From Raillietiella orientalis (taxonomy: Eukaryota): a DNA stretch of 64,000 nt. Positions within the stretch are counted from its first letter, which is position 1; every line of letters begins with the position of its first letter. Location of the stretch: contig JAYWIR010000003.1 in assembly GCA_036172245.1 (NCBI GenBank), forward strand, positions 1,178,001-1,242,000, given 5' to 3'. The translations under genes were made by a program, and so were the position numbers. Of this stretch, positions 27,546 to 64,000 are shown in pieces. Under the pieces are notes generated by a model that did no database searches, was not told the DNA's origin, and worked only from the letters and a program-made list of their open reading frames with translations.

Positions 27546-27568
27546 ATCATGTTGTATTTTAGAAAGAA

Positions 27569-28260
27569 GTCCCGGCTTATCCGGGTGAGAAATTTATTAT
27601 ATAAAGCAATAAAATACATTTTTGTGGTAGAACCGTTGGTTTTACCACGCACAACGAACCTGCCGAAGCAGACCAGCGAGGTATGCTTCGGCAGCGTGGG
27701 AAGAGGGAAAACCAAAGCACACACAGAAAAATAAACAAACAAAACGGTGGAAGGAAGATTCTACACGGTGAGGGAGGGGGGGACCGAGGAAGGGATCGCG
27801 GTAAGCTGCCAGGCGTCCTCTGCATCCCGTTCAGGATGCTGGCAAGTTGCGTTCTGATGTTGCCCCGGTGGGGTCATCTCGAGGCAGTCCTCAGGAAGAT
27901 CCGCGCCCAGTGGATGGCGTCCCTGCCATTCTAGCCTCTCCTTCCCGCGTTCCAGGCTGCACGATTCCGCGAACGCAGCAGCGGACTGCGAGGGACGTGG
28001 CTGGCGGTAGAGCGGCACGCGCGAAGAGACGTTTCCAAATGTACCTGGGGGGCCCTCCCAAAGGGATTCCTAGGATCGTCACTAGGCGATAACAAAAGGG
28101 TCGGAGGGCAGTACAGTCCAACACCAGGTGCGGGAAGGTCTCCTTCTTCCCACACCTGTCTCGCACTGAGCCTCCACGCTCCCTCCCCCCCGTGTCCAGA
28201 GGTGAAGACGCGCTTCGCACGGGATTCTCCCATGCGCCAACAGCAATGCCGACTCCACTT
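27569..28260 (-). mobile_element. Tx1/L1-clade LINE 3' fragment with intact 3' terminus
   Basis: Knuckle RCGKKETFPHLVLDCTALRPF; C-rich and T-rich 3' UTR; ends AATAAA-TTTCTCA-CCCGG-ataag-CCGGG-AC. Confidence 0.75.
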
Positions 28261-28728
28261 TGATCTTAAACAAAAGGCTGAGAAGCGACTCCTGCCACTG
28301 AAGAGGGGGCACTGTTCCAGCACGCTAAGGATCACTTCACCTCCTCCAGAGGGATGTCGAGCAGGTCTCCCCAGCGTACCAGTCCTTGAGGGTGCAACAC
28401 TCGAGGTCGCAGCGTCCGTCACTTCCGGAGTTGTCTATGCCCCCAGAAGTTTCGTCTTTGCTGCTATGAAACAAGTCACTTTCCACCTTGCCGGAATCAC
28501 GCTGTCCTCGGCTCAGGATAGAAATCCTTCTGGAGGTTTTCTGCTTTCTCTGCGTTCCTTCTAGATTGTTTCCTTTCTTTTCTTTCCTTTTTCGTTCGCC
28601 AAGTGCTGCAGAAGAACCGTTTGCCTCCTTTGGTGGCTCACGAAGCTCTTACATTGTTGTGTCCACACCACCTGAGAGTGTGTGACACTCTTCAGGATAG
28701 GGGATACCCAGGGAGGGGACCGCCCTAT

Positions 28729-29213
28729 GAATCCAGGAAGACTGCGGAGGGAAGGAGTCCGTTTTTCTTATGCTTGGTGGGGAATCCTCGCTCTGGTTGT
28801 CTCCGAAGAGAATCCCGAAGGGAACCTGCTTCCTTATTTGCTCTCCAGAGGAAAGACACTCCTCATTTTCTTCTCCGGAAGGAACCCGCGAGGGAACCGC
28901 TTCTCGTATTCCTTCTCTTCTGAAGAGAACCCCGTCGGGATGCTTCCCAGTTTCCCCGAAGGAAGCAGCGCTCTTTGACACTCGGGAGAGGCATCAACCA
29001 GCTGCGTGGAACGCGATGGTGGGTCAAGAGAAGGGAAGGGACAGCTCTAAGGTTTCATAACCCTAAAGGGAATCACCACCTCCTCTTCTTTTTCGGAGTT
29101 TTCTTTTTTTTCGGCTCCTCAATTCCTGGAAGGACCCCGGAGGATCGGCTTTCAATCCTGACCCCTCAGCAGGGGCATGCGGTTGTTTCCGTCTTCCACC
29201 AGTGCCGCACCCG
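28729..29213. repeat. GC-rich dispersed repeat, copy B
   Basis: Inverted homologue of 22200-22805; both translate to similar EENPEG-containing junk peptides. Confidence 0.75.
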
Positions 29214-29214
29214 C

Positions 29215-29889
29215 CGGCATCTGTGGACACGGCGGTGAGTGAACCCAAACTGTGCAAGGTGCGGGGAGCAGGAATCCTTCCCGCACCTCCTGGTAGACTG
29301 TGTTGCCCTCCGGCCCCTTTGGGGACGCTTGGCCGCGACCCTTGGAACTTCTGGCGGCAAAGCCAGAGGCGCTGTAAAGTATTTCTTCCCCCGAGACGCC
29401 GTCTCGCCGGTCGCATCCCCAGCAGCACTTTGCTGCCCACGTGGTGTGACCGTGGCTACATGGAACAGCAACGTCAGAGGAGGCCAAAACGACAGGGACG
29501 CCATCTATTTTACTGTCCTCTTCATGAGGACAGCGTCAGGATGGCTCCATCTGGGAGTCTTGAAACAGGAACTTGCCGACATCCTTACAAGGATGCAGGG
29601 GGCGCCCTCCAGCACATAGTGATTCCTTCCCGAACTCCCCTCCCCCTTCCTTCATCTTTCTTGACTGCAGTTTTTTGTTTTGTTTTCCTTTTTTTGTTTG
29701 TCTTCCCTTCCCTCGTGCTGCTGAGGCGCACCCTGCTGGCCTGTGTGCCAGATCCCGGCAGGTTCCTTTTCGTATTCATACGTAACATGGCAGGGTCAAA
29801 CGTCCTGCCACAGACATGTAGGTTTAGAAGTAAACGCCCTGGCGTGACCGGGTGTCAACCAGTGCCACACCCGAAGCCTACCGGGACAA
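29215..29889 (+). mobile_element. Tx1/L1-clade LINE 3' fragment
   Basis: NPNCARCGEQESFPHLLVDCVALRPLWGRL (CCHC knuckle), stop at 29619, C-rich and T-rich 3' UTR, terminal CACCCG...CGGGACAA. Confidence 0.8.
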
Positions 29890-29936
29890 CGGCGTCATCC
29901 CGCGGGAGAAACTCGAAACCCACGGCTCACCCCCTC

Positions 29937-30151
29937 TAGACGTCGATCCTACACCGGGGGATTCGCGCCCGCAACGACTCGCACCACGAGCGCGGCGACC
30001 GCCGCCACACAGCCGCCAGCACAGGAAACGTTCACATTGAACGCAGGGTTGTGTGAACGTTTCCTGTGCTGGCGGCTGTGTGGCGGCGGTCGCCGCGCTC
30101 GTGGTGCGAGTCGTTGCGGGCGCGAATCCCCCGGTGTAGGATCGAAGTCTA
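29937..30151. repeat. Palindrome with 100 bp arms and a 15 nt loop
   Basis: 29937-30036 and 30052-30151 are reverse complements with one mismatch near the base. Confidence 0.97.
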
Positions 30152-31676
30152 AATACAGGCATCTTAGATACAGCCTATTCATCCGACCGCAGAGCCCCTC
30201 TCGTGCGTAAACCGCATGTGCGGTCCTAGGGAAAGACCGGTTTCATAAAAAGCAAGATCATATCACGGTTAATGTCCGTCTTGCTTCCATCGACCTAATT
30301 TCAACGAGGCCGAGTTCGAACATGCAGCCACGAGCGCTCGAGCTTTCCCTTTTATCAATTCCGAGCTGCTACCTTCATCTTAATTTCCTTTCCAGCCAGC
30401 GTGCCATTCTCAGTTCCACCTGTTTTATTTGGGGGGCAAACTCTTGGGTGTGGATTCTGCAAATGTGCTTTTGCCGTCGAGAGCGCATGGGGAAAATGTC
30501 TGATGAACGAGAGAGCTGCCCTCGGTGGACGATCACGCAAGAAGCGGAAAAAAGTCTTGAGCTTTCCTTGCAGAGGTGGTCTTTAAAAGGGGGAGCCTGT
30601 CGCATCGGAATCGTTCGACTATAAATACCACCTGGCACAAACGCTAGCTGACTTTCCCAACTTCTGAGGTAATATGACGCGGGTAACCCTTTCTCAAGAA
30701 GTGCATATGGAAGGAGATCGAAATTACCTTGTGGCTCTGCTCGTCAAAAGGGCAACAGGTTCATCTTTCCAAGCAATCACGCTTGCCAACAAGGAACAGT
30801 CCACTTGCCAACAGTCCGTTTGATCATTCTGTTGAGGCATTTTTTTTTTTTTTTCCAATGCGTACATTATGGAAGAAGGCAGCTTTGACCAGCAACATTT
30901 TGCAATTTCGTTATTTCCTATGAAGGCTTGTGTGTACACGCTTCCTACCTTCGCGTAGCATCACTGAATCTCCTCAGAAAGGACGTTCGTCCCCGAGATG
31001 TGCGTTTTCTGTTTGGTCCTACGAGGAGTTGAAAACACTGTCCTACTCAGTCTCGCGGTGGCTTTGGAATTATCGCCTTCAGATGGCAGCTTTTCAGCAA
31101 AGCTTTTCGTCCTCAGTACCATATCTCTTCAGGGTCTAAATCTACCCACCACTGCCTGATCCTTTTCGAATCATTGCTTCGAGATGTTAAATCCCTTGCA
31201 GCTAAAATAATCTTCAGTCGTTCATTCTGTTGAGTAACTTAAATACCAGTTCATGAATTGCCGGGTAATTTATTCTTAGATGTCAGATCAAGGTCTCTCT
31301 GATTCTCGTGCACCAGACTTTAGAAAGAGATGAGTTTTTCTAAAGGTGAGAAAATAACTGTCTGGATTTCTGAAGTTGAAAACTTGGTCAAAATCTCAGG
31401 TTGTTGTCATAGTGATGCTTCACAGGATAGTCCGGTGAATGAAAATGGCATCTTTCAAGTACGGTGCTAAATTAATTTCAAAGAATCATTAATACCTTCA
31501 TATTTCCATTGTGCAAAAATTCCGTTCTTAATCTCCCAGAGTTATCTCTAAAATTCAAAGGGATATATTTTATGCGATCGATGTTTCAAGGTGTGTAACA
31601 TCGTTAAGAAAATATGGGGTTCGTATGCTTAAGGAATAACTAATGCAGAAAGCATATTATGGGAAGCAATGCATCT

Positions 31677-38404: not shown

Positions 38405-39754
38405 ATGTCAGCTTTACTTGTTGTAGCAGTTTTGTTGATTTTATTGGTTTTGAGCCTGTTAAAAGTATCAGAACCTATAGAAATACCAAAAATTTATGGA
38501 CATGATAAATTTCTGACAGCCTTACTTGAAAGCTGTTCAACTCTTAACTATCCTTTTGAACCAACATGGCTCTGGGGAAAGAATGGACATATACAAACAA
38601 TTGTTCATGCCATAGTAGGTCGTGTCTGTTGTCCACAGCCAAAGGATAGTAAACGATATGAAGTAGTTTTACCTGATGGTGCTACTATAACTTATGACTT
38701 GTATAACCCTCTTGGTCTGCATTCTGCTGGTGATGTTACGTTAGCTATCTGTCCTGGCATAGCTAACAGTAGTCAGTCAGTCTATGTTAGAGCTTTGCTA
38801 CGCCTTGCTCAAGGTGAGGGATGGCGCTGTGCTGCCCTAAATCATTTAGGTGTTATCGATGTTCCATTGACAACCCCTCGCATTTTTGCCTATGGTGAGT
38901 AAGCAATCATTTCATACTTTCATTGTTTGTGTAGGAAATACAGAAGAGCTGGCACACATGTTAGATGATTTAGTAATTTTATTTCCACAAACACGGATTG
39001 TGCTTGTGGGATTCAGTATGGGAGGAAACATAGTAGTGAAATATTTGGGGGAAAAGAGAAAGCATCCTGCTCAAATTGTTGCTGCCATATCTATCTGCCA
39101 AGGATATGATGTTCTCTTGGGAATTCAGCTACTCATGCAGCTAACTGGAATCATGGCTCGTATTTATTTGCATGGCTTAACTGAGGCTATGCGTAGACTT
39201 GTGATGCGCCATCGTTCTGTACTCTTGGCAGAATCAGTCAGACAGGAGTATGATCTACCAGAGGCAGCACGTATCATAGCAGCTCCTTCTATTAGGGAAC
39301 TTGATGAATTGTACACTAGGTGAGTAAATGAATAATTAACATACATGCATGGTATGTGTAGGCGAGTTCATCGCCATTCTGATTTGGAAGCATTTTATGA
39401 TTCTCAAGGCTCTGTCCATTATCTTGACAGTGTTATGATTCCTTTAGTTTTAATTAATTCCAAGGATGACCCTCTAGTCCCATTACCTTTACAGCAGATT
39501 GCACACAGATCTGCTGGTAAGCCATATTTCTGTTCATCCATTATTGTAAAGTGCTTTTCATTGTAGAGAAACAAAATGGCATAGTTCTTGTGGAAACAAA
39601 ACATGGGGGCCACTTGGGGTTTTTTGAAGGAGGCATACTTTATCCAAACCCAGTGACATGGCTTGATCGTGTTATTGTGGAAGTTGCAGCAACATTAGCT
39701 CAGCTTCCTAAAGGCTACATATTGAACTTAATAGGACAAGAAGCTTCTACTTGA
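38405..39754 (+). CDS. ABHD2: Alpha/beta-hydrolase domain protein 2 (monoacylglycerol lipase ABHD2-like)
   Basis: N-terminal hydrophobic anchor, WGKNGHIQT, CPGIANSS, GFSMGG nucleophile elbow, SKDDP, HGGHLGFFEGG. Exons 38405-38894, 38935-39319, 39362-39516, 39567-39754. Confidence 0.93.
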
Positions 39755-44176: not shown

Positions 44177-45895
44177 ATGACATTACAGGAGGATTGTTTA
44201 CAGTTTTTTGGAACCTCAGATTTATATCAGATACTGAAGATACGGAAAACTGCAAAACCTAGAGAAGGTGATTTTATGATTCTATAATTATAATTATGTG
44301 AACCTTAAGAATTATATCACTACAGTCTTGATGCCAGTGTTTCTTTTACTTTTTGAATCTGACTTTCATAACTCCTGGAAAATACAACGTTTTGCACATT
44401 TTTATTTATGAGAATATTTCTAAGTATGCTTTCACTGGATCACATTTTAATAAGTTATAAGCTGATGTTATTTTTCAAAACAAATTATGACTGCAGGAAT
44501 AAAAAAAAAAATTGAACATGCACCTTTATTTTGAATTACGATTAACTTTAATTAAGGATTTCCCAGTCGGAAGCATGTAAAATGTGTAGTGCAGTTGCAT
44601 TTTCTAGTGCTAGTAAGAAGATAAATTTAGTGATTTTGTTGTCAAAAATGCATTAACTTTAGAAAATGTAAACGTTCTTTACAGTTGCAATGTATGTTTA
44701 ATGTATACAAATTCTGATTATTTCCCATGTTTGCAACTTGTGTGACAGTAGCTGTTTTTATAGTGAAAAAAGCATATTATTCAGCCTCCTTGAAAATTCA
44801 TCCAGACAGAGTTCCTCCAGGAAGAAAAGAACAGGCTACCAGCCAGTTTCAACTGCTCCTAAAAGTATATTCTGTACTCTCTGATCAGCAGAAGCGTCTG
44901 CTATATGATGAGTCAGGTGAATTTTAAAAACATGTTTTGTTTTTTAAGTTTCAATTAGGCCAAGTGGATGATGAATTCAGTATTAACATAGAAGACTGGA
45001 GAGGATATTGGAATACTTTATTTAAGCCTGTGACAAAGGAGTTGATTGAACAGTTTGAGAAGGAATACAAAAGTAAGTTGGATTTGCAGTTAATTTGAAA
45101 TCATTTAAGTATGCAGATTCTGAAGAAGAACTGATGGATTTAAAGGCAGCATATCAAAAATGCAAAGGAGATATGAATGCTATTGTGCAACATATATTTT
45201 ACAGATATGATGATGAGCCTCGTATCTGCAGTCTCATTCAAAGAATGATTGATAGTCAAGAAGTGGAGGCCTTTCCAGCTTTTACTCATGAACCCAAGAG
45301 CAAGAAGGAACGTCGATGGAAGCGATGGGCGAAAGAAGCTCAGGAAGTGGAAAGAGAGAACAAGCATCAAAATCTAGATACAAAAGAGCAGTTAATAGCA
45401 GCTATTCAAAATCGGAAGTCATCAGTAGAAAACTTCCTTCATAACTTGGAGGCCAAATATTGTACTTCTGCAACTAATCAGAAAGCAACCAAAAAAAGGG
45501 CTGTAAACAAATCTTTGCCTAAAACTGAGGGTAGGGAATCAGGTAAAAGGTCGAAGAAAGCATTAAGTCTCGAAAAAACAATGATTGCTCCCCAAATGGA
45601 TACCATTTCTGTTAATAGTAATCAACACATGGATGGGTCAGCTGCCTCTGATCATCAGAAACCAAAGACTACCACTTCAAAATCTAATCAGATGAAAAAA
45701 GTGTCACAGAAAAAAACAAAATCCAATGAGGACTTAAACACAAGTGATGTAGCTCCCACTAAAGGTACACTTAATAAGAAAAAAGTCATTAAAAAAAAGA
45801 ATGCTGTTCCACAAACAAAGCAAGTGGTGAAGAGTGGAACAGATGAAATGCATAAGGTGTATCCAACCAGAACTAGGAAACAACTTTTATTATAA
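44177..45895 (+). CDS. DNAJC9: DnaJ homolog subfamily C member 9
   Basis: FFGTSDLYQIL, J-domain SLKIHPDRV, SEEELMDLKAAY.KCKGDM, LIAAIQ, FLHNLEAKY. Exons 44177-44267, 44764-44917, 44959-45072, 45117-45895. Confidence 0.92.
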
Positions 45896-45946
45896 CATAT
45901 TTGGAATTTATTTTTAAAGAACATTGCTATTTCCCAAACTTTCCTA

Positions 45947-46736
45947 TTACCGACGATTCCCTCTTCCTTGTTTCTTTTTCTTTGATGACGGATTACTGTC
46001 TTGAGCTTGTTTCAGAGCAGGCTTTAATGTTGTTTCTGTCCCACTACGTTGGCAACGAGTTTTCAGTTTTGGAATCATTTCTCCTAGATGTAATAATATA
46101 GCCTTTTCTACAAAAACATTTACTGCCATAGATGACTTATCATTGTCCTTACTTGTTGGCAGGGCAGGATTCTCTGGCTCACCATCATCATTTCGTATTT
46201 GCACTCTTATTCGCCCTTGACAGGTTGCTTCTTTGGTTCTTTCATGGCAGTAATTTTTTTTTTCTATAATAGGATTAAATCCTGCTACTGCTAGTACATC
46301 ACGCATCTCCTCCACACAGGGATTATCTACAGCCTACAAACAAATCTTAATTGGAAAATATTTTCAGCTAACCTTGCTTTTAGGTATTCTTCTACCCTGA
46401 TCCAGTGTTCTCTTGTTATTGATGTAAGCAGGATACAAACATGCCCACCTGATGATACAGTCATTTAGTTATATATAAATAACATTACTATTCAAAAGTA
46501 TGCAACAACTTTTACTGGATGGCACGTGAGAGCTTATTTACTGTCTGAGAGAGTAAATCACGGTTACTTAGAACCCAAACTTGATATACGTGTTAAGTTT
46601 CCAATTTTGTTTGACTACAATTTTTAGTATCGTTACCAATACGAAAAAGCTAACTTCCAAATCATCTGAAACAGAAATATGCCACACCTAACCTTTCTAT
46701 ATCTGAATACTTTTTTTCAGGGTTCCAGAAACTCAT
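45947..46736 (-). CDS. SRP19: Signal recognition particle 19 kDa protein
   Basis: RWACLYPAYINNKRTLDQGRRIPK, AVDNP, GRIRVQIRNDDG, EMIPKLKTR, basic tail; ATG at 46736, four exons. Confidence 0.95.
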
Positions 46737-48868: not shown

Positions 48869-49516
48869 CTAATTGGCAGTTTTTTTCCAAATCAAAACCT
48901 TGTTGTTTGCAGGCATGTCATGAATGGATTCCAGCTTCAAGTGAAGGCTTTCTGAAATTTTTTCAAGTTCGCATACATCTTTTATTCCCCAAAGTGGATT
49001 AGTCTGCTTCAACTGTTTATCAAATTGTACATTACTCTCTGGAACGAGCACACCATTCATCCTGTAAGGGCCATAGGTACAAAGTATGCCTCTGGATTTT
49101 AACAGAAAATCTGAAGCTGCAAACAGATGTTCACTACACTTGATAGGTGTCACATGAATCATATTAACACACAATATAAAATGAAAACTATCAGGTAAAA
49201 ATATATCAGCATCCCATTCCATTGGAGGCTTACATACATCTACTTGAATGGGTGGATGAACATTATTTAATTTATAATGTTCAATATATTTTGCAATACT
49301 GTTTAAACAATGGCTATCAAGCTCTGTAGGATACCAATAAAAATTTGGAAATTTTTCAGCCATAACTTGCATATGTTGTCCTGAACCAGCTGCAATTTCT
49401 AATCCCCTGAGTTTTTCATTTGAATCACCAAAATCAACACTTAGTGAGTTTAGATAAGGAGAAATGGTTTCTAAGATATATTTCTTATTTCTCTCAGGTG
49501 CTGAATAACACAGCAT
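48869..49516 (-). CDS. METTL26: Methyltransferase-like 26 (UPF0585/DUF938)
   Basis: Single-exon 215 aa ORF: APERNK, LEIAAGSGQH, NMIH, TYGPY, SNVQFD, WGIKD, DMPANN. Confidence 0.93.
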   Translation of the reverse strand: MLCYSAPERNKKYILETISPYLNSLSVDFGDSNEKLRGLEIAAGSGQHMQVMAEKFPNFYWYPTELDSHCLNSIAKYIEHYKLNNVHPPIQVDVCKPPMEWDADIFLPDSFHFILCVNMIHVTPIKCSEHLFAASDFLLKSRGILCTYGPYRMNGVLVPESNVQFDKQLKQTNPLWGIKDVCELEKISESLHLKLESIHDMPANNKVLIWKKTAN

Positions 49517-51247
49517 TTTGTTGTGAAGTCTAGTATGTGATGAATTAATAGGATGATTACCTGTGAAAAATCATTTCAAATACTGCACTAAGGTTACTTT
49601 CATATTAATTTTTAGAGATTTTCGAGATTTCAATATAATAAAACCCTAATTCAATTGCAAATTTTGAAATCCCAAATTCATCGATAAATGGAAAACTATT
49701 TACATCAACCAAAATAATAGCAACTAGTGCGGGGATCAGCAATATTTCCTTCATAAAAATGAATCAAACTATAAACCGGTGTCATAACAGATTTCGACAT
49801 CAATTAATTTATGATAACCATCAACTACTTTCGGTGGCAGCTTGCTCACATGAGTAATTCATGGTCGGGTCTATCAAAAATGGACTTGCTTGGAAATTTC
49901 CTCATCTTCAAAAATTATAGATAATTAAATAAATGCATGCGCTGTTGGGTGGTTTACATTAAAAAAAGGTCCTAAACACACCACAGATGAGAGATCTGCA
50001 CGCCATCTTGCAATGTTTCATGAGGCGATAATAACACAGAAAAATAATTACACACATCCGCAATGGGTCATGAACGACTAATTTTTTTAACTTAAATCTA
50101 AAGTGGTTTAGCACCTTATTGACATACCAGGGCTTCAAATCTGGGAGCAACCACAGGCCCCTGTGGGATGGCCAAGACGATTCCTGTCGCAACGGGAAAG
50201 TTCCTCACGGAGGAGAAATCAGGCCCGCAGGTTCGACAAGTGAGCCATGGAAAACAAAACAGTGGGGGAGAAGGTGCCTGTTAATTCCTGAGCAGAATTT
50301 CTCCATGGACACAACAAGTTTGTTTCCATATGTACTCTTAACCGTTCCACATGCGATCGAATTTTGCTACTCTCGAATTTTTTTCTACTTCATTCTAACT
50401 GTACGTTCTTCATTCAACGGGAAATCTTCCAGCAAAGATAATACATTACCTATTGGACTTTTTATGTCAAAGGATACACGAATTCAGTCACAGCCACACT
50501 TGTCACTTATTTTAAAATTTTAAAATGGCATTGTTTTAATCTTCGATAGGCCATTGATCAGCAATTTAAAAGATAGGCGGTGGCTCCAGTCCGATGAAGC
50601 TGATATACTTTTGAGTGAATAACGACTTGAAAAATATGAATAAATTGCCAATAAAGTCTCATTTGCTTCATTCGCAACACACAATATGGGACCATGATAA
50701 CTAAAGTAAGAAACAAAACTGAAACAATTTAATCCTTCTAAGCCACGAGCGAATATCAAGTCTATACAAGTTGACTACTCGGAGTGGATTTTACAGGATC
50801 TGATGCAAGTATCGATTTAAACATCGTCTGCATAAAGTCCAATAAGTTTATATTTTCTAATTTCTTGATATCTACGTGAAAATCTCCAACTAATATGATG
50901 GGTATATACGGATCACTGAAGTTCTTCGTTATTCGAAACACCACTGAAAACCTGGATTGTCCCCAAGTCCGACAAGCGGTGGGGTGAATTTATTAAAATT
51001 CTACCAACGCACAAACAATCAACACGCACTCAGTTGAGTCTTTCAGGACTTCACAGTCCACTATTGCACAGATTCGCAGTTTTACTTAACATATCGTGAT
51101 CACTTCACTTGGTTTTCCAGATTTCAAGGTAGGGGAAGGGGAGGGGAATCGTCCCTTGTGCCCGGATGTATTCTTCCATCTTGAGAAGGATGTACCGGTA
51201 CGTCCAGGCTGGGATCTTGCCGCAGCTCCTGATCCCTATTTCCTTTT

Positions 51248-54200
51248 TCACAAGGCCGCTGACAATGTCTCATGCAGGCACTTGAGGTGGAAGGGCGCCC
51301 TCTTTATCACAATGGCAGTGATAAAGAGGGCTAGCGTGGTCAACACCATCGGGTTGTAGAGGGGAACAACTCCCGTTCCCTGAAACAAACCCGACAGGAT
51401 TTGTTCGTTCGTCTTCCTCTGTAGGCAGGTTATTGCCTTTACCGCATGCCAATCGGGACGTAGTGTGGGGCAAGTGAACACGTGAAGTTGAGTTTCCTCT
51501 TCTCCGCACGCCTTGCAGAGTCCATCTTGATGGTTTCCTGTCCAATGACACAAGCTGGAGCCACTCAGTCTCCGTTGTAGAACAACAGGTAGTCGTCCTG
51601 CGTGTCCGGGGGAAGGTCACTCCCCATGAGGGCAGCCCCTACGGTCAGCACATTAGCGTGCGCGGGGCCGTAGCGTCTCGAGGCTGCCTTAAGGGCATCG
51701 AAGTCTTGTTGCTGTTTTCCTAATTCAGTCCTCATGTTGGCTTTGGTCATGAACAGCCACGCCTGGTGCGGCTGTTCTTTCCAAGGCTCCCGGGTTCGAT
51801 GGTTGTTAGAACCCCGCAAAGCCGTGGTCAAGCGATGCAGTCGCAATTGGTGCCGATTGGCACTGGTGGGGAACTGCACGCAACGTCAAATATTCAAGCG
51901 TGGCCTTTGGTGTAATCAGCTCACAGTCTCCCTTGGGATCGGGATAAAGTGAGGTATCACCATAGCACGCTCTTCATCCCATGCTTCAGAGCTCCTAGGC
52001 ACGATTTTGAATCGGTGAGTTGTCACCAGTGCCTGTTTACGTATCCATGTAGGGTCGATTTGTATCCAATCTCCAGTGGCGCCTGTGAGCACTGACATCA
52101 GGTCCCTCGAGTTGTTCAACAGTTTCGAGTACGCCCAGTGCGCTGCATAGGGCCACTCATCCCAACTTCTCGTGAGATCCAGGAGTTGCCGCGCATCCAT
52201 GGTCTCCACGGAATGTTCCAGCAGCTTCATACCGATCCCACCATGCTCACGAGGGCGGCACAGCAATTCCAGCCGAACCCTCAGTCGATATTCACGCCGT
52301 AGGAGCTTCCTTTGCACTTTTTCCAACTCCACTTTTGTCTTCTTGCCGATTCGGCAGGTCTCCCCATAGAGAACCTTGGGAAGGAGAACTCCGTTCCACA
52401 AGGTGGCTCTTCGCGTCATCTTGAAGTCGACGCAGGTGTACTTGGTGGCTTCATCTTGGATCATGCCTAGGATTTCCTTCCACAGGCAAAGTGACGCAGT
52501 CTCGTCTCCGAGTGGATTCCCAGGTATTTCACTGTTTCTGCTGCTCAAAATCCAGCCTCTTGCAGTGTAGAGAGGTCCATGATCCCGATTGGCAACAGGT
52601 GGCTCTTCCTGGTGTTGATTTTGAGGCCTAGTCCTTATTCCATCTGTTTGACCACACCTAGGAATGCTTGTGAGTCTCCTTCGTCCTTAAGGAAGAACAA
52701 GAGATCATCCGCCGACGCCAGGTGGGTTAACTGCTGGCCGTCTATTCGAATTCCTTGGAGACGGCTGCCTCGATCCACGATCGTCGACACCGCCTCCATG
52801 TATAACACGAACGCATCGGGCTCAGGGGGTCGCCTTGGCGAACTCCCCTCTCCATCCGAATTGCTGCCGTCTCCAGACCGTTGATCCCGATGTTTACTTT
52901 TTGCACCGCGAGGGTCCACTCCAGGTATTGCAAGAAGCTTGGGAAGCCCAGTTTCCTCAAGATCTTCAATAGCATCCCATAGTCCACGGTGTCGAATGCT
53001 TTCTCCATATCAGTGAACCCTAGCACCAGGTCTCCGCCTACATATAGGAAATACCCGATGGTGGCCAGGGCACACTTCACATTCGCAGACAGGCATCGTC
53101 CGGGCATCGCGCATGTCTGCGTAGGAGACACGACTGATGGCATCGTGATGTTTAAGCGGTTGGCCCAGATCTTGGCCAACCACTTGGCATTCGTGTTGAG
53201 GATGGTGATCGGCCGCAATTGGATGACTTCCAACAGGTCGCCTCCCTTCGTGGAACGATGGAGTGAGGCTGTCTTCTTAAATGGCACTTGTGAGTTCGCG
53301 GAACAGGCGAAGGTAGGCGTGCAGGTAACGCTGATAGTGCGTGATTGGAACACTATCGGGTCCAGCCGCCACATCCTTGCGCAGTCCAGCGAACTCAATC
53401 TTGATTTCTTCTGCGGAGATCTCTTCTTCCAGCTTCTCTCGATATTCCTGTTTTACTCGTGGGTGCAGGTACCGCAGGATGCTCTGCTTTTCCGCTGGGC
53501 GCAGATCTCGTCGTCGGAAGTGCGAGGTGTAATGATGGTGGAAGGCTTCCGAGATTCCTTCCGACGTGTGCCTGAATTCATCTGCGTGCCGGATGGAGAA
53601 GACATCGGTGGCGATGCTTCTCTTTTCCAGTACTCCAACTTCCCCTTTGACGGTCTTGAACACGTACGGGCTCTCCTACTGTGGCTAGTATTTCGAAAGC
53701 GAGCAGTCTTGGTGTTCAAGCTCAGGTACGCTTCGGATCTCATCTTCCTGTCGCCGAACTGCGCGTTACTGAAGAGATGGATTGTGCGCTTCAACCTGTC
53801 CCAGTCGGCGACCCGGAGGATGGTAGTATTCCGCAGAATCGCTTCGATTAAATACTGGTGACAGAGATGCGTCTCGAACTATGCGGGCATGCATACTAAC
53901 GCAGAGCTCCCGCCTGTCTTCGTCAGAGAGTTTTCCGTTCTTAGCGTGAATCGTAGCAAGGGATGATTCGAGAGCACACATGGAACGTCCTGGAAGCCTT
54001 GCAAAGGATTCGCGATGTCATCGCTGTATAGGACATGGTCAATCGGCTTGCTGCTGGCAGTTAGCCATTGTAGGCCGAACTCGTCCGTCAGCCGCTGATA
54101 GGCCATTCTTCCCCATGCATCCATGGACTGAGTTATCTTGTCCAGCATGTTGAAGTCTCCCACGACGATCACTATGTCCTTCGCCGAGGCCTTGCTCCGT

Positions 54201-54403
54201 AGCAGAGCCTGTACGGCTTCCGCGCAGCGATGTTTGCCTCGGTGCGGCCCGTACACGTTCACCAGGAACAGGTGCACGTGAAGGCAGATGATATGATCTC
54301 GCTTAATGGACCGTGTGACCAGTCTTTTCTCTTGATTAGACAATCCATTTACGTTCCAGGAGGAGATATTGATGCTCCTGGCCGTCGACAGGAAGGTGGT
54401 CAT
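51248..54403 (-). pseudogene. LINE ORF2 (APE endonuclease, reverse transcriptase, CCHC)
   Basis: SWNVNGL, VGDFN, IDH; LRPITILN, QTCAMPGR, DMEKAFDTV, GVRQGDPLSP, ADDL; CKACGEEETQLHVFTC. Multiple frameshifts and deletions. Confidence 0.92.
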
Positions 54404-54409
54404 CAGGGT

Positions 54410-56017
54410 CTAGTTGGAGTACCTGCTTTTCTTCTTTTTGGGGGACGTTGTGGTCCTCCTCTTTTCACCTCGCGTGTCACCCATGTCGCTCTCCGACTCG
54501 GCGTAGTCAGTGCTTTAGGCGACTGGGTGTGTAGCGTATGCGGTGACGTTTTGAGGGCATAGCATGAGGCAACTCCTCAAGCTCCCCGCTGGCGTATCGC
54601 TTCTTAATCTCCAGCATCCTGTCCTCCAGTTCGAACCGCTGAGCATCATCGGGAACGCGCTCGTTGATGGAGATCTCCACCCGGCATATGCGCTCCAGAG
54701 TTTCTGCTCGTGCCTCCTTAGTGATTGCATCCTTCACCAGTTCTTCTACATGTGCAATTTCTGCTGCTGCGTTGGCAAGTTCCGCCAACTCCGCAGCTGC
54801 CATTTCCGTCACCTCGGCTGGCTCGGCAACTTCCGCCGGCTTTTCCGAGGTAGGCTGGGGTAGTGTCTTCCTTTTTCCCTTGATGTTCTTTTTCTTCACC
54901 TCAGTGAATTCTGCCTCCGTGGCAATCACCTTGGCCTGTGGAACCTTCTTTTGTGCCACATTTCCTGGTGCCACCGGTAGGGGTGGCAACCCCTGTGCGT
55001 CCCTCCACACCGCGTATCGTCTGCATTCCTTCTTGAAGTGCCCAGACAGACGGCAGAAGTAGCACATTATCGGCTGGGCCCACATCCTGTAGAAGTGGCC
55101 TTGCTGGCCGCAACGGTGCCACTGTGTCCTGGGGCATGCCCCAACGCGGTGTCCGAACGCCTTACAGCCCACGCAGAAGATAGGCTATTGCCTGTACTTC
55201 AGCCACACGGCTTGGGAGTATGCGTCCATGTATGCCACCCCTGGCATCTTGGCATCCTCGAAAGGACGCATTTTAGCAAATCCTTCCCCGGAGAAGATCT
55301 CGCCAAACTGGTTGCGAAGTTCCAGATGGTGGACTTCCCTGTACTGGGACAGGAAGTTCTTTATAATTTTGCTGGTGTTGAAGTCGATCCCCTTCATGTA
55401 GACTGTTATCGTGAAGGTTTCTCCCACTCCACGTATCAGCCGTCCATTTATCGACAGACCGTGTTCCGCCAATGCTCCGATTAGGGGGTCGCATGCTGTG
55501 TAGATGGTAAACTCATGCGCACAGGGGATTATCACCTTGATTACGTCGAAGTCGACGTTCTGGTGAAGGGCGATGTATATGTCCTTCACGTTAGCCATAC
55601 GTAGGGGCCTGTATTGAAGACTATCGGTTTAAACTCCTCGTCCATCGTCAGGATGGGCTCGTCCTCATCGTCGAGGACGTATACTGAAGGTTTGAGCGGT
55701 GTCCGCTGTTTCGCTGGGTGCACCCTGGGAAAACCGCTTGATTTTACCGCGGCTGCGTAGGAAGGGTAAGATGGCGTCGCCGCGTAAGACGCTGGACGCG
55801 TTGCTACCGACGCTGCGGGCGTTGCTACGGTCGCCAATGCCACGTGCGCCGCATGCGGCATTTCCGCAGACGCCATCGCTGTTACCTCCTTATCTGTAGT
55901 GGTAGCGTCCATCGCCTCCATCTGACCCTCGCGGGGCGAGTCCACTTGGGGAGTGTCCTCCACACTTGGATTGACTGGGGGAGGGGCAGGGTCCAGTGTT
56001 CTTCCGGGATAGGGCAC
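54410..56017 (-). pseudogene. LINE ORF1 (gag-like, three CCHC knuckles)
   Basis: CKAFGHRVGAC, HRCGQQGHFYRM(W), CYFCRLSGHFKKEC; Ala/Pro-rich N-terminus; probable end ...PKKKKSRYSN* at 54412-54410; first ATG at 55921; frameshifts present. Confidence 0.85.
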
Positions 56018-56065
56018 TGATCACTATACACTCACAGTAGAAGCACTCTTTTTAGCACTTTTTTG

Positions 56066-56228
56066 CAGGAGTCCGCGCGAACGCAGTCTCCCAGCTTAAA
56101 AATTATGCTTCCGAGTAACCCACGTCTGGGGTTATCGCAGAGATCAGCCCGATCGCAGTGCAATGATCGAACCTCACTCTGGAGGGATCTCCATGGTGAT
56201 CAAGATCGCCTCGAAGCCAGGTAAGTAT
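56066..56228 (-). ncRNA. U1: Full-length U1 snRNA copy (163 nt), apparently promoterless
   Basis: ATACTTACCTGG 5' end, SL1 loop GATCAC, SL2 loop ATTGCAC, SL3 TAACCC/GGGTTA, Sm site ATAATTTTT, SL4 GACTGCGTTCGCGC, ends CCTG. Confidence 0.97.
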
Positions 56229-57596
56229 GCAACTGAAACCGGGACAAAGACACGACCATATTGCCAGCCAAGAGAAATTCAATTTGATCCATTGTCAAGT
56301 TTTGAGAAATGTAGACAGTAACCAACAACGCCTTCGACCATCTGATTTCAAACTTCAGCAAAGCAAATATCTCCTCAGTGATCCTGTACTTCCATTTGTG
56401 TCATAAGATCATTATTGTCCACTAACATTGGGAGCACACACATCATGGTTGAACCTTTTTAGTTGTGAATACAGACTCTTCCGAATCTCACTAACGATCT
56501 TTTGGATTCAGTAATGCATTTATCGCCAAGAAAGTCAGTTCCCTTATCTTCCCAAGCCAAGTTTCATTTGCTGATGGAATATTTCACTGGATAAGGATCG
56601 TACCTGTAACAATATCTTCGTGATGAAGCTTCAAGGTCTGAACATTTAACGTCTCCAATTTCACAGTGTTGGATATCAAAGCCCTGTTACAAAACTGCAT
56701 CCCCTCAACAGAGAGTTTTGAGAAGATGGTAATTCAACCGCTTGAACTCAGTTCGAAGATCTTGCATCTTAGGCGATAGTGTGATCTTGATGTTCGTCTG
56801 ATTTATGTTCGTAACTTTGACATAGCAACTCAGACGAGTTGTTGTTCAAGACCTTAGTCGTATTCCAAAACAAGCTCTCCAAACATTCCACCCTGAGACT
56901 TATGGACTGTCATAGAACATGCTTTAACTAAAAGAAGTTGAATTCTTTTGCATTTCAACAACTTGGTCTTGAAAGACACTAATGAGGATCGTTTGGTTGT
57001 TGAAGTCCAATCGGTCTTAAAGACAGCAGGATGCGATACTACAGGAGCTTTAAGACGGCTTTTGGCTTCCATCTTCTTACGGTCCAACTGTAACCATAAT
57101 CTTCTGATGTCCACATCTACCGTTCCAACATGCTGCAAAGTTCCAATTGCTCCGTTAACTAAACCATCTTCTATATCGATGTTCACTGTTATCATGCATT
57201 ATTTTCCTTTTGATAAATGTAATGTAAATGGAAGTCTCTATATACAGAATAGTCTCGTTTGATGAAACTTCCTTCTCGCGCCCATCAGTTGCTTGCTGGT
57301 CTTATATTTAGACTACAGTCCACTACACTGTGGTGGCTTTGAAATGCTTGAGCATTGTATTGTAGGACATCGTTGCTACGATGAAACAGGATAGAGTTTG
57401 GCAAACAGATAGAGCTGTTCCAAACCAACTTTCGATCAAAGGATTTCTCATTCGTGTCCAGAGACCCATCGATTCCAATTTTGTTAATGTGGAAGGGGAC
57501 ACAAATCCATTTTGTCTCATGGCCTGGACGAGTGGAAAGGAGCTTAAAGAGTGCCACAAGATTGCATCTCCAACCGAGTTCTTATGTGGTCTGAAT

Positions 57597-57637
57597 ATCA
57601 AAGTGTAGTATCTGTTCTTATCAGCTTAATATCTGAT
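57597..57637 (+). ncRNA. U2: U2 snRNA internal fragment (branch-point recognition sequence plus stem-loop IIa)
   Basis: ATCAAAGTGTAGTATCTGTTCTTATCAGCTTAATATCTGAT, about nt 26-66 of metazoan U2; neither the 5' end nor the Sm site is present. Confidence 0.92.
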
Positions 57638-60600
57638 TAGCGTCGACTGCAGGCAACATTATATTGAACCCACTGAACTCTCGATCGAAAGCAACGCTGA
57701 TTTCTTGCACTCTTGAATTTATAATATGGAATATTTCATAGTCCGTCTTCCTCAATTCTCCCAAAATGATGATTTGAATGTCTCAGAAGCTGTTTCGATA
57801 CAAGTGGAGTATTTTTTTTACGGAAGACCTAAGTGCATTCTAGACATTCCAATTTTAAATACAGAATGAATCCTCGTACTGTTTATCGCGACACAGATCT
57901 TTCCTATCAGCACTCAAGAGACGAATGAGTTATGAATCAAATTGGGAACTTTACTAAAGGGATTGTACGCTTTTATAATTACCTTCAAGGTGAATGTTTT
58001 ATCACAACCTGCTGGACTGGTAAAGAGTATTTGAAGCGGTTTCGTATTCTGCTGATCTATTATCTAATTTTTAACTTCCAGACCAAGTTCTGTCTGTTCT
58101 CTATTCGTCAGTCTAAGAAGTTTACAGCATTCTTCTCTTGACATGTCATTCACTTGTTCCGAACAACAGACGAAAGAGATCGTGTGGATATTGATTAGGT
58201 GTCAACGTAATTCACTTGCGATATTGAGGCTTCTTCAGCTGCTCTGCTCTGAACTTCAATCTTAGCTCGTTCATCTTCTTGTTCGACTATCTCACCGCGC
58301 GGTTTTCTAAGAACTCCAATGACTTCTCAGCATCGATTTCCGACTCGTAACGCTTTCTACAATTTATGATACACTCTTCATTCTCTTCGTACATTTGTAG
58401 AACCTTATTTAAATCCAAAATGCCGACCATATCCTTTTCAAAGGGACAGTAAATAAAACCATTTCTCATTTGTATTCATCTAGTTCAGACATTTCATAAT
58501 GACGGTAACAAATGATCTTCATCTGCTTTCTAATCTTATGTTGCTTCTTGATGATATATTTCATGACAAAATCTGCTAAAAAAATCTTCCAGTTCGTCTT
58601 TTTTTGGACGATTCTGGTATTTATGAATGATGTTTTCATTTTATGCGTCAGTTGAATCATTTTCTATATCATCTTCAGTTATTTTTTCTTACTTTTCTTA
58701 TTCCTATGCCACTTATGTAGTCAGGTTGTCGGGATGTAAGCCAGTTTTCTGCTCGCTTCAGAAATAGGTTGTAGAAGAAGATATCATGCAGCCTCTTGAA
58801 ACTCATCGCCATGCTGCTCAAGATTTTGATGCTTACTCATTCCAAGAGATCAGTGTAATTTTTTTCAGGAAGCTCTTGCAATTTGATTAACTCTTTGTGA
58901 AAATGACTTGAGGTTTGGTTCTTTTTTTTGACGTATTCAACTACTGTTTTTTTTGACGTATAATACACATTTTTCCCAAGTAAACTGTAAATCCATGGAT
59001 TAAACGTATGAGTTCAAAATTTTCATGGAGATATAATGTTCTCCAAGAGATTCATCGAATGACTAGCAATGCTTTTCTTCCAAATCTTTCGTAAACTGCT
59101 TAAATTCCTGCCTAAAATTCTATGTGTGATTTTCCTGCAAATTCATCATTGTTAATATTTTCGTTTCGTTCATAGGCCAATATGGGATATTAAACCTGCA
59201 TCTATAATCACTTTTGTTGTAACAAGTGAATGCATGCTGTAATATGAAGCTGGAAGGTGCACAGAATCAGCGCAACCGAGATCGTGGGTGTTTGGCATCC
59301 ATCAGAAAGACTTCTGAATCGTTTTCCAGCCGTGACTTGACTTCCCAAACCACGCAGATCACTTTGCAATCCACAGTTTTTTCAAGCTGCTGATGTCACT
59401 AGATCCGGGATACCCTGAGAGCTATAAAGGAGAATCGAATCCTTAAAGGCTCCAACGAGGTGAACTCAAAAGATCAATGTTAGCCTGTACAACATATGAA
59501 CAGACAACCCAAAGAGGACAAAAGCAGTTTGTAGGGGGGGATTTAGAACTTCCCAATATGAAAAGCAGTCAGAACTTTCGACGACAGCAAGCCAAGACTC
59601 ACCATCGGAAAACTCACCTTAGCACGTGAGGAGGAAACAATGTTAGATTATGCATGCCTCAGAGCAGAGAGATATGACGCTTTTTAGAAAATCACCCAAA
59701 CCAGGGAAAAGCAACGTCTGCATAGATCAGCATCGTTCTTCCAGATTCTTTCAACGGTGACTACATGCGTCTCGCAGAATATACTTCGGCTCAGTATCAT
59801 TCCTCTACGAGGAGCAGAGACAGTGCCGACCACATGCACAGGAGGTGTGTGACCTGACAAGAATTCCTTCTCATATTTACTTGCTGCACTCACAATCCCA
59901 TACAGCACGAAGCATCATAACAAATTGGACTAGGAGATCAACAGGGTGAGGTAGACTAATGGGAGTCGCTCACCTATGTTCGGCACCCTCTCAGGACGGA
60001 CTCCAGACTCCGACCGATTTGATTCTACAAAGAAAAGGTAGGGTCACATCTTAGCCGACGTAAATTTTCCTTCAGATGATCAGCCAGGCGCTTTGGAAAA
60101 TGCCTGGAAAAGGAGAAAGAGCAAGTACTGAGGACTGGTGTACACTTCTCATCCCGGGAAAGTTCACGATCGCATTTCGATACGGCATAATACAGCTTCG
60201 TTTGAAGCAAGGTAGTGTGTAAACCTGTCTTCTCTTTCCAAAAAAGTATTATGGTTCACCATCATTTTCGGTTTGTTTGCTTCAGCAACTAATATTCCTT
60301 TTTGTCGTAGCAGTGATGTAATTGCCTTTTATATATGGTTTCTTCCATTTCACTATAAGGGAAAGGTATTGGCAATGGGAGACGTAAATTAGGACTTGAA
60401 TGACCGGAAAAAAATAATATTCAATTACGAAAAGATGAAAACTCCAGCATGCAGATGACAAGATCGTTTTCGATGCGTGCATGTTACATTGAAATACACT
60501 GAAATATTGTAGCACCGTTGTACACTACTCAGTCTTATTGCAAAGCGTTTAGCATATTATGCAACTAACAAGAGAAAATCCTTTATTCACACAGAGATGT

Positions 60601-62119: not shown

Positions 62120-64000
62120 ATGACAGACAGGAATATTGGTGAATTGAGATTGTGGATAGGTTTAATTCATAATATACTTACAGTCTTCATTCTGTTTTTT
62201 GTAATTCTGTGTATAGAGTCGAAAGCCTGTGGAAGATCTTTGACTTTACCATTTGGTTAAACATTTTGTTATACATGTCAATAAAATTAATGGATTTGGT
62301 TAAAAAACAATGGCCTCTTTCATTGATAAGTTTAATTAATACCGGGTTTATGTGGAAAAGCAGAGTTATATTTGAGTCTCGTTTTGACTGTTATGGTGGT
62401 GCAGTATTCAATTAGTTTTTGTTAGAGCCAAAAACATGAAACCATAATGTTTTCATGGATTCATGATCCCTGGGTTTGGTTTTCATACGCTGGGATGCTG
62501 TTTATTCGTATTCCCGAATCAAATTTTGCTTTACAGATGTGTATTATAAAACACAATCTTAATGAGCTGTTACATGTGGAGTGCACATGTAACCATTTTA
62601 ACATTATTTTACTTTAGAAATGGGAATGTGGTATTATTTTCTACAATAAAAAATATTTTGATATTTTCATGCAGATAAGGTACAGTTTTGAAAAGCAGTT
62701 GAAGTTCTGAAAGAGGTGTTTTTTTCATGAGCTGTCATATAGTATTCTAATTTAGCTTTCTGGATGTCGTTTTGGGTTTTTATTGAGTTTTCGTCAGGGG
62801 ATTATTGAGTATAAAAATGTGGTTTTAAAACATAAGTCATTCATAAATATAATTTTAAGATTTTTTTTTTTTTTTTTTTAGATTCTGATTACTTTTATTT
62901 TGTTGCAGAATCTTCAGATGCTGAGTCCGGTTTATCTGCTGTGCAGAACTCTGATGATGATGATGCTGTAAGAAGTAATGATGCAGATTCTTCTTCTGAT
63001 GCTTCTGATGTACCAGTTGGAAATGTTCAGAATGGTGGAAATCACTTGCAATCAGAGGAAGATTCTGATGTGGGCAGCTATGAGGAAGAAGATAGCGTGA
63101 ATCATGATGAAAGTCACCGTTTCAAGCAGTCACTAAAGCAGGAAGAAGAAGAATATGAAAATGAAGGTGGACAGAGTGAAGAAGAGTATTATGATGATGA
63201 TGAGGAAAAAAAGCAATCTTCTGATGAGCAGCAAGGTACGTTAAAATATATTTTTGTCTTTTGTTCATGGAAGTCATTTGCAGATGATTCTTCTAGTGAA
63301 GAAGATACAAATAGTAAGCGAAAACGAATTGAGCTTAGCATAGGAAGTGGAAGTGATATGGAAACCAAGAAAGTCAGGGTGCAGGAAGATGAAAGTATTT
63401 TTTGAAGTTTTCTGTTTTTTTCTGATTACAATGATTTGTGTTAGCATCTAGATCACCACTGGGATCTTTTGATGAAGGTGCTGACATGTCCTCTGATGGT
63501 GAAAAACATATGCAACAAAATAATGAAGATCAAGATGCTGCCTCAGAACCAAGAGAAGATGGAGAAGTTGATGAGGATGAGGATGCACTTCCTGAAACAC
63601 GGATCGAAGTAGATATTCCGCGTTTGATTACAGATTTGGGTCGTGAAATCCATTTTGTGAAACTTCCTAATTTTCTGTCCGTCGACCCTCGACCTTTTGA
63701 TCCAGACACTTATGAAGATGAGATTGATGACGAAGAAACTTTGGACGAAGAAGGTCGTGCTCGACTTAAACTTAAAGTTGGAAATACGCTTCGTTGGCGA
63801 TCTGTTTTAAGTGATGATGGGCATTTTACTCATCAAAGCAACGCGCATTTAGTGCGCTGGTCCGATGGCAGCATGTCTTTGTTGCTGGGTAGTGAGGCAT
63901 TTGATGTATGCAAACAGCCTTTGCAAGGAGATCATAATCACTTATTTCTGCGCCAAGGAACAGGACTTCAGGGACAAGCTGTGTTCCGAACCAAATTGAG
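62120..64000 (+). CDS. LEO1: RNA polymerase-associated protein LEO1 (PAF1 complex), runs off the window
   Basis: Acidic Ser/Asp/Glu N-terminus, then [23 protein letters not shown]...GRARLKLKV...[10 protein letters not shown]...[13 protein letters not shown]. Exons 62120-62138 (tentative), 62909-63235, 63284-63394, 63445 onward. Confidence 0.95.

Follow-up and report, generated by a model that had tools for sequence, protein, structure and literature searches.

A complete U1 snRNA sequence and the LINE behind it form one inserted unit on the minus strand of the window (the whole 64-kb stretch of DNA analysed here), and this unit interrupts the endonuclease part of what is, to judge from its sequence, a decayed Helentron. 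We propose, with about even confidence, that U1 was gained as a 5' addition by template jump during one target-primed retrotransposition into the Helentron endonuclease gene. The LINE copy is dead, not functional: its whole coding sequence is broken into 11 stop-to-stop pieces and its endonuclease carries an internal deletion.

Results

The U1 head and the ends of the insert are defined by the following features:

56230..56244, minus strand: upstream (5') copy of the target-site duplication, 15 nt, aligned to the downstream copy
56066..56228, minus strand: U1 snRNA copy, 163 nt (Rfam RF00003, 129.8 bits, E 1.5e-32)
55922..56065, minus strand: linker and 5' UTR, about 144 nt, from reading of the sequence
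50941..50956, minus strand: downstream (3') copy of the target-site duplication, 16 nt, aligned to the upstream copy

The match to RF00003 (gathering score 69.5) runs untruncated from model position 1 to 166 and is the sole Rfam match across the window, in agreement with the initial annotation, which had read a minus-strand U1 from its exact +1 (56228) to its 3' end (56066). The copy fits the family over its full length in sequence and secondary structure, although three stem pairs are non-standard; its Sm-site region reads AAUUUUUAAG. It lies uninterrupted in sense orientation relative to the LINE and on the 5' side of the LINE only. A functional U1 gene has an upstream snRNA promoter (PSE) and a downstream 3' box. 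Upstream of +1 the copy has no promoter DNA, the duplication and the Helentron frame adjoining it instead, and it is thus not a functional U1 gene. Only one base (C, 56229) separates the upstream duplication copy from +1, so the RNA that served as template started at the cap site of U1.

The linker opens with C, A6 and an imperfect direct repeat (AAAAAAGTGCT / AAAAAGAGTGCT) at 56064-56042, and GTGAGT is found further on at 56035-56030. The approximately 144 nt after U1 may be the LINE's own 5' UTR, as the reading favoured below implies, or may derive from the region downstream of a U1 gene. The likeness of the linker to the consensus of the snRNA 3' box is loose and carries no weight here.

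The two duplication copies are identical at 13 of 14 aligned positions, with one 1-nt gap, and 1.6% of 5000 random 76-nt windows score equally against the 30 nt before U1. When the flanks are joined with the 16-nt downstream copy kept, one open frame of 116 aa results, whereas keeping the 15-nt upstream copy shifts the frame. The proposal that these repeats behave as a target-site duplication, and that excision keeping the downstream copy restores the host frame, was therefore confirmed exactly. One duplication brackets U1 and LINE together and no second repeat pair surrounds the LINE alone, which together with the restored frame excludes two separate insertions with their own duplications.

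A search for sequencing runs yielded one DNA run, X1 (share 0.27), and no RNA run; X1 consists of low-coverage contigs, possibly from the same sample as the window's assembly. Among the 55 X1 contigs aligned to the window, 3 are at least 99% alike and 42 less than 90% alike. No X1 contig covers 55825-56045, and the U1/LINE junction at 56066 is likewise uncovered. The Helentron flanks are covered by one exact contig only, which is 265 nt long and spans flank, duplication and U1 nt 1-65. A composite that did not arise in one event, whether through independent insertions of a U1 retropseudogene and of a LINE into one spot, through rearrangement of the DNA or through a false join in the assembly, would fit the uncovered junction and an insert old enough for secondary events (the duplication copies differ at 3 of 16 positions), but it is highly improbable in view of the single duplication, the restored frame and the exact X1 contig, which may however stem from the window's own sample.

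A Helentron encodes a Rep/helicase protein with a C-terminal AP-endonuclease-like domain. Parts of such an element were found on both sides of the insert:

56245..58063, minus strand: upstream part of the putative decayed host Helentron (44% identity to protein P0274, E 2e-16, for 56857-57198)
57917-58063, minus strand: helicase remnant with a P-loop-like word, by sequence comparison
56857-57198, minus strand: helicase remnant with a motif-VI-like word, by sequence comparison
56203-56400, minus strand: first half of the Helentron endonuclease-like domain, colinear with P0274
50523..50940, minus strand: downstream part of the Helentron endonuclease-like domain, continuing the interrupted frame (E 3e-7 to P0274 residues 1718-1747)

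P0274 (1753 aa) contains Helitron_like_N and PIF1 domains; at its C-terminus Exo_endo_phos is matched weakly, at E 0.0029, short of Pfam's cut-off. Sequence from either side of the insert aligns with this C-terminal domain in colinear order. Through this relative and the colinear flank matches, the host is assigned to the Helentrons as a decayed copy. The Rep part was not recognised in this copy, and the window holds no second Helentron copy.

Downstream of U1 and the 144 nt, the insert continues on the minus strand with ORF1, ORF2 and a 3' UTR:

54507..55921, minus strand: ORF1 remnant, start ATG at 55921, from translations
55188-55628, minus strand: RRM-like middle part of ORF1, from the nearest Atlas clusters
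54507-55184, minus strand: three CCHC knuckles and charged tail of ORF1, the knuckles read by eye from translations
51248..54403, minus strand: ORF2 remnant in 8 stop-to-stop pieces (Exo_endo_phos, RVT_1)
53879-54409, minus strand: AP-endonuclease domain of ORF2 with internal deletion (Exo_endo_phos, 1.2e-6)
52635-53452, minus strand: reverse transcriptase of ORF2 (RVT_1, 1.9e-11)
near 51470-51517, minus strand: C-terminal Cys-x2-Cys-x7-His-x3-Cys word of ORF2, by eye from translations
50957..51247, minus strand: 3' UTR with AATAAA at 50994-50989, ending in ...GGGGACAA

ORF1 carries a single frameshift, near 55600, and a single in-frame stop codon, at 55185-55187. Its nearest Atlas clusters are arthropod (score 0.91), with RRM_1 in 18% of the members of one cluster, and the zf-CCHC profile reaches only E 0.12. 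In ORF2 the Exo_endo_phos match covers profile positions 124-210 of 225, and the 55 residues before it are too few for the first 123 profile positions, which points to the internal deletion. The Cys2-His-Cys word is visible by eye, while a search of 51248-51885 gave no Pfam match, zf-RVT included, even at E 10. The LINE 3' end has no poly(A) tail. The 3' hairpin proposed earlier could not be substantiated, as the small predicted hairpin is not better than chance (z 0.45), with 134 of 200 shuffles folding equally well. The description of the LINE as full-length holds for its ends, but not for its fragmented coding sequence with the endonuclease deletion.

With an N-terminal AP endonuclease and a reverse transcriptase in ORF2, the LINE is by its domain content of the L1/Tx1 type, without a close relative. 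The closest solved reverse transcriptase is human L1 ORF2p (2.9e-12), with R2 at 1.4e-7; neither the endonuclease piece nor the helicase piece matched a solved structure. An AP endonuclease is present in 28 and zf-RVT in 19 of the best 30 full-length relatives of the reverse transcriptase. Identity to the reverse transcriptase is at most 39% in the word-based search and at most 43%, over about 145 aa, in the exhaustive HMMER search, where one of 13144 matches lies at E <=1e-30 and is made up of four matched stretches. The names of the 10 top clusters of relatives were uninformative, and a pattern scan of genome contigs with the reverse transcriptase piece gave 60 matches and no relatives. Neither blastn nor tblastn with the 11 ORF pieces detected a second LINE copy in the window.

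Reverse transcriptase alignment was also used to fetch 80 metagenome loci, to which the reverse transcriptase core alone matches, and not the ORF1, endonuclease and C-terminal pieces. These loci include an intact LINE family that occupies a specific site within U1 genes (L002, L008 and L047), in sense orientation and behind a conserved upstream block; L005 belongs to the same clade. A quick tree of the reverse transcriptase core was built from 67 of the 80 loci, the other 13 having been excluded for multiple stops or a length under 180 aa, and in this tree the window's reverse transcriptase sits on a very long branch (1.99) and in no supported group.

Discussion

According to the mechanism we favour, reverse transcription of an L1/Tx1-type LINE RNA would have started at the 3' end and gone on until the 5' end was reached; the enzyme would then have jumped to a U1 snRNA, entering it at its 3' end and continuing as far as nucleotide +1 ('5' addition'). 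Once the staggered nicks were repaired, the 15/16-nt duplication would have remained. The chimeric copy has decayed since. The U1 head may date from this event, or it may have been gained by an ancestral element that passed it on in its RNA. We infer the jump itself from a U1 part that corresponds to model positions 1-166 and stops at the mature 3' end, from the L1/Tx1 architecture of the reverse transcriptase relatives, with human L1 ORF2p as the closest solved enzyme, and from snRNA-headed precedents (Kojima 2015, PMC4494074; bioRxiv 10.1101/2025.02.02.635956). On the other hand, a clean end-to-end jump leaves the A-rich stretch and the imperfect direct repeat unexplained, and the single copy examined shows neither a one-off event nor an inherited head.

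The initial annotation had taken a U1-headed autonomous LINE to be undescribed. This claim fails, because snRNA-headed LINEs are already in print: Kojima (2015, PMC4494074) names the crocodilian Tx1 families Tx1-2_Crp, Tx1-2B_Crp and Tx1-4_AMi with a U1-originated head and Tx1-11_Crp with a U2 head. There, repeated 5' additions of U1 or U2 onto SINEU are ascribed to template switch, and most Tx1-Mar families are described as inserting preferentially into a Mariner DNA transposon and Tx1-4_AMi into LTR retrotransposons (PMC4494074). The U1-headed families among these share with the window copy a U1-derived 5' end on an L1/Tx1 LINE, a position inside another transposable element and the absence of an snRNA promoter. 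However, their U1 head is described as very like that of SINEU-2, with the U1 part ending near position 53-58, whereas the window copy carries the whole 163 nt; moreover, they are families in crocodilians, while the window holds one dead copy from an arthropod-like host, with poly(A) absent. The insertion into a putative Helentron is one case, which does not by itself show a preference for a transposon family.

Chimeric insertions of snRNA and LINE-1 are cited as known for U1-U6, with U6 making up 70.9% of 253 candidates (bioRxiv 10.1101/2025.02.02.635956). Like these mammalian chimeras of the U6/L1 type, the window copy has a sense snRNA 5' of a LINE and one duplication around both, as from a single event. 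In the mammalian cases U6 dominates and the LINE is usually a 3' fragment with poly(A), while here the snRNA is U1 and the LINE extends to the start of ORF1 and includes a 5' UTR. In the human genome, none of 33 U1 copies was seen to be a U1/L1 chimera made by template switch (Doucet 2015, PMC4476161), so U1 seems a poor acceptor, at least for human L1.

Template switch was only the alternative in the initial annotation, which had put forward read-through from a U1 gene, but we consider it at least as likely. Under read-through, a possible but less probable course that amounts to 5' transduction, the source LINE would follow a like-oriented U1 gene at a distance of no more than a few tens of bases, by chance or by family targeting. 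Transcription from the U1 promoter with failed 3'-end processing would yield a U1-spacer-LINE RNA, and its retrotransposition into the Helentron would be an off-target landing. An insert that starts exactly at U1 +1 with the whole U1 fits this course, as do the approximately 24 A-rich nt with the repeat that follow U1, possibly genomic sequence from its 3' side, and the short remainder of the 5' UTR, as expected for an element without its own promoter. Transcription from flanking sequence is discussed for SINEU (Kojima 2015, PMC4494074), and 5' transduction has precedents in SVA-MAST2 (cited in PMC4494074) and L1PA5 (cited in bioRxiv 10.1101/2025.02.02.635956). In these LINE-1/SVA cases, as in the window copy, upstream sequence lies at the 5' end of a full-length element and inside the duplication, but it consists of mRNA exons transcribed from the promoter of a Pol II gene, whereas the window copy carries an snRNA.

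Elements tied to spliceosomal snRNAs do exist, in particular the snRNA-gene-targeting Keno and Utopia (U2), Dada-U1 and Dada-U6 (PMC4640811, PMC8869645), of which Keno is an AP-endonuclease LINE of the Tx1 group in U2 genes (PMC4640811). These elements occupy a fixed position within the snRNA gene, with snRNA sequence flanking them on either side, while the window copy has an intact U1 on its 5' side only and Helentron sequence as its 3' flank. Together with the metagenome family in U1 genes, Keno speaks against template jump insofar as L1/Tx1-type LINEs sited in snRNA genes and able to use snRNA promoters exist; the metagenome family, of like architecture, in sense and behind its conserved upstream block, indicates that such LINEs can depend on the U1 promoter. 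Nevertheless, the window reverse transcriptase does not group with this family in the quick tree, and our literature search found no LINE that specifically targets the flank 3' of U1. By rough estimate, it is very improbable that a LINE inserted by chance no farther than about 30 nt downstream of one of few U1 genes. The Helentron target bears no meaningful resemblance to the U1 3' end and linker, a match of equal quality being reached by 1993 of 2000 random windows, and the idea that it mimics them was dropped.

It is unlikely, though conceivable, that a LINE lineage resides immediately downstream of U1 genes, relies on the U1 promoter for its transcription and uses the whole U1 (cap site, Sm site and stem-loops) as its 5' leader, the Helentron copy being an off-target insertion of the read-through RNA. 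If this were true, the U1 leader could give the LINE RNA snRNP-like handling.

With its clear boundaries and reconstructable empty site, the copy is a well-preserved textbook example of chimeric retrotransposition. If more copies share its junction, snRNA-headed LINEs would extend from crocodilians to an invertebrate, and the head from a partial U1 of about 55 nt to the whole U1. They would then offer a clean case on how promoter-less LINEs are transcribed, distinguishing a borrowed snRNA promoter from heads gained by template jump.

A composite insert in a decayed Helentron

The insert consists of a U1 snRNA and a LINE, both on the minus strand, between two short repeat copies.

Parts of the composite insert, in its own 5' to 3' direction
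56244-56230, minus: 5' repeat copy, 15 nt, followed by one extra C
56228-56066, minus: complete U1 snRNA (Rfam)
between U1 and ORF1, minus: leader of about 144 nt (sequence reading)
3' of the leader, minus: two-ORF LINE and 3' UTR without poly(A) (sequence reading)
53879-54409, minus: Exo_endo_phos domain of the LINE (Pfam, 1.2e-6)
52742-53452, minus: RVT_1 domain of the LINE (Pfam, 1.9e-11)
50956-50941, minus: 3' repeat copy, 16 nt (sequence reading)

Aligned with a single gap of 1 nt, the repeat copies share 13 of 14 positions, and the score against the 30 nt preceding U1 was equalled by 1.6% of 5000 random 76-nt windows. The initial annotation had regarded U1 and LINE as a single unit. In agreement with this, one repeat pair brackets both, and joining the flanks by script with the 16-nt copy retained yields one open frame of 116 aa. 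The 15-nt copy instead shifts the frame, consistent with the length difference of 1 nt.

The proposed location in a decayed Helentron, within its endonuclease-like tail, was also borne out. The flank at 56857-57198 (minus strand) matches P0274, a Helentron-type relative protein of 1753 aa, with 44% identity across 99% of the flank length (E 2e-16). P0274 carries Helitron_like_N and PIF1; at residues 1543-1734 it also matches Exo_endo_phos, but weakly (E 0.0029, which misses the Pfam cut-off). Since the pieces on either side of the insert are colinear with its residues 1617-1654, 1674-1703 and 1718-1747, the last at E 3e-7, the insert interrupts this tail. Pfam alone gave no match to the window copy at 1e-3 (UvrD_C_2 only at E 0.11), and no second Helentron copy was found within the window.

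From one DNA sequencing run, 55 contigs aligned to the window, three of them at least 99% alike and 42 less than 90%, while region 55825-56045 stayed uncovered. The 42 are diverged LINE relatives, mainly over reverse transcriptase (RT) and endonuclease. An exact 265-nt contig spans flank, repeat and U1 nt 1-65, but is not independent support, because the run may come from the sample behind the window assembly.

Host genes surround the elements at 1697-5625, 38871-39320, 45077-46333, 48872-49570 and 63435-63998; they comprise LRR and F-box exons, an alpha/beta hydrolase, DNAJC9, SRP19, a DUF938 methyltransferase-like gene and Leo1. The best named relatives of the DUF938 gene (48872-49570) are from insects (39-41% identity). 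Together with the arthropod affinity of ORF1 (below), this makes the host probably an arthropod-like animal that has no near sequenced relative in the collections searched. The block at 22000-30700 is GC-rich (0.45-0.56 vs 0.30-0.39 around it), holds numerous open frames of 90-290 aa that overlap one another on both strands, gave no Pfam match at 1e-3, and could be another repeat or decayed element.

The U1 head and the LINE

The U1 copy scores 129.8 bits against a gathering score of 69.5 (E 1.5e-32) and covers model positions 1-166 without being cut off; no other Rfam family was matched in the whole 64-kb window. It looks slightly decayed, because it has three non-standard stem pairs and AAUUUUUAAG as its Sm-site region. 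The leader contains GTGAGTGT (56030-56035, minus), 30 nt past the U1 end, which can pair with U1 nt 1-8, and about 60 nt beyond it lies a pyrimidine run ending in CAG (about 55973-55990, minus). Due to this succession, the leader could hold a short intron; GTGAGTGT may also be there by chance, for which we estimate about 1% for an 8-mer over 144 nt, the word having been picked post hoc.

The LINE had been called full-length. It is 5'-complete, with leader and ORF1 start present, whereas the coding sequence is not intact and the copy is dead. The coding sequence falls into 11 stop-to-stop pieces, with ORF1 interrupted by a frameshift near 55600 and by an in-frame stop at 55185-55187. Of the endonuclease profile only positions 124-210 are matched; the domain is partly deleted, since the preceding 55 residues are too few for the first 123 positions. 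The other 10 pieces scanned gave no Pfam match at E 0.01, and no further LINE copy was found within the window.

Among solved RTs, human L1 ORF2p is nearest (2.9e-12, vs 1.4e-7 for R2). Searched exhaustively with HMMER, 1.84 billion representatives returned 13144 matches at E ≤0.001, with at most 43% identity. Among the 30 best full-length RT relatives scanned, AP endonuclease is present in 28 and zf-RVT in 19, which is the L1/Tx1 architecture. The C-terminus of the window LINE itself was not recognised by Pfam; the LINE is a candidate member of the Tx1 clade in the strict sense. For the middle part of ORF1 the nearest ESM Atlas clusters are arthropod (0.91), with RRM_1 in 18% of the members of one cluster. 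Prokaryote genome contigs, scanned by pattern, yielded no relative.

A LINE family within U1 genes

With the alignment of RT relatives, 80 metagenome loci were retrieved, all about 29-40% identical to the window RT core. By sequence reading, three of them carry one LINE family within U1 genes, near nt 15-18.

Stretches that show the U1-site LINE or its junctions
L002:490-6146, sense to U1 (sequence reading)
L008:108-4057, sense to U1 (sequence reading)
L047:3560-3680 and 9430-9550, sense to U1 (sequence reading)

L002 runs from U1 nt 1-17 through an intact element to U1 from nt 3 up to the contig end, so that U1 nt 3-17 are duplicated around the LINE. The downstream U1 matches Rfam U1 positions 1-53 (38.5 bits, E 1.3e-8) and ends at the contig edge. 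The element encodes an ORF1 of 509 aa and an ORF2 of 1201 aa, the latter holding Exo_endo_phos, RVT_1 and zf-RVT, and the family is an intact L1/Tx1-type LINE with APE, RT and zf-RVT, and with CCHC in ORF1. L008 has the same 5' junction behind an upstream block common to both. The block spans roughly -69 to -45 relative to U1, the place expected for a PSE. At both junctions in L047, an element's 3' end is separated from the 5' end of its successor by 11-13 nt of U1 (starting at nt 3); the copies are tandem insertions at one site. Together with L005 the three loci form a clade with support 100 in a quick RT tree of 67 of the 80 loci.

At gathering thresholds, the single Rfam match in the 80 loci was the full U2 gene in L002 (72-263, 190.5 bits). 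It is on the same strand as the occupied U1 gene, 226 nt upstream of it, which hints that U2 and U1 genes are linked in a cluster in this organism. GGTRAGT, 60-70 nt past the U1 fragment, is kept by the 5' UTR in each of four copies of the family (L002:~565-575, L008, L047), which is unrelated to the window LINE. The 3' UTR ends in a conserved hairpin with CATTGCAC in its loop (L002:6041-6095; L047:~3560-3605, ~9430-9478), a word that also forms the loop of U1 stem-loop II and of U1A-binding elements. A putative U1A-type loop is a lead only, because the U1A_PIE match was weak (17.8 bits, E 0.39).

As snRNA-gene targeters known by then, Kojima and Jurka (2015, PMC4640811) name only Keno and Utopia (both U2), Dada-U1 and Dada-U6. 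Our literature search, which did not extend to many subscription journals and Repbase Reports, found no U1-gene-specific non-LTR element, and novelty of the family is unproven.

Origin of the U1 head

The initial annotation knew of no described U1-headed autonomous LINE, but autonomous-type LINEs with a U1 head have been published (Kojima 2015, PMC4494074). There, Mariner-N4_AMi, a DNA transposon, is the preferred target of most of these crocodilian Tx1-Mar families, except for Tx1-4_AMi, which prefers LTR retrotransposons. SINEU-2 heads are partial, since their U1/U2 junction lies at positions 53-58. The recurrent 5' additions were ascribed to template switch, while the mode of transcription was left undecided, with transcription from flanking sequence among the options (Kojima 2015, PMC4494074). 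The window copy differs from these LINEs in its complete U1, its host group and its lack of poly(A). LINE-1 chimeras with U1-U6 are likewise cited, U6 accounting for 70.9% of 253 candidates (10.1101/2025.02.02.635956, 2025 preprint). Doucet (2015, PMC4476161) reports none of 33 human U1 copies as a U1/L1 template-switch chimera; 18 of them have a poly(A) end.

A template jump and read-through from a U1 gene into the LINE alike account for the promoter-less start at U1 +1. We favour, at about even confidence, that the U1 head would have been added at the 5' end by a template jump, because this needs no special genomic arrangement and repeated gain of U1/U2 heads is documented for such LINEs. 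Read-through is less likely; in its favour are the A-rich, partly repeated 24 nt directly after the U1 end, which a clean jump would not explain, the short leader and the occurrence of LINEs of the same architecture within snRNA genes. However, the Helentron target resembles the U1 end and linker no better than chance (equalled by 1993 of 2000 random windows), and the window RT falls outside the metagenome U1-site family in the quick tree (67 of 80 loci; window branch 1.99). The results neither support read-through nor rule it out. A pair of separate events, or an assembly join, is highly improbable given the single repeat pair, the frame restored by excision and the lack, by sequence reading, of a second repeat pair around the LINE alone.

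The composite insert is real and cleanly delimited, a dead single copy, and as an snRNA-headed LINE or chimeric retrocopy it is of an already known kind.
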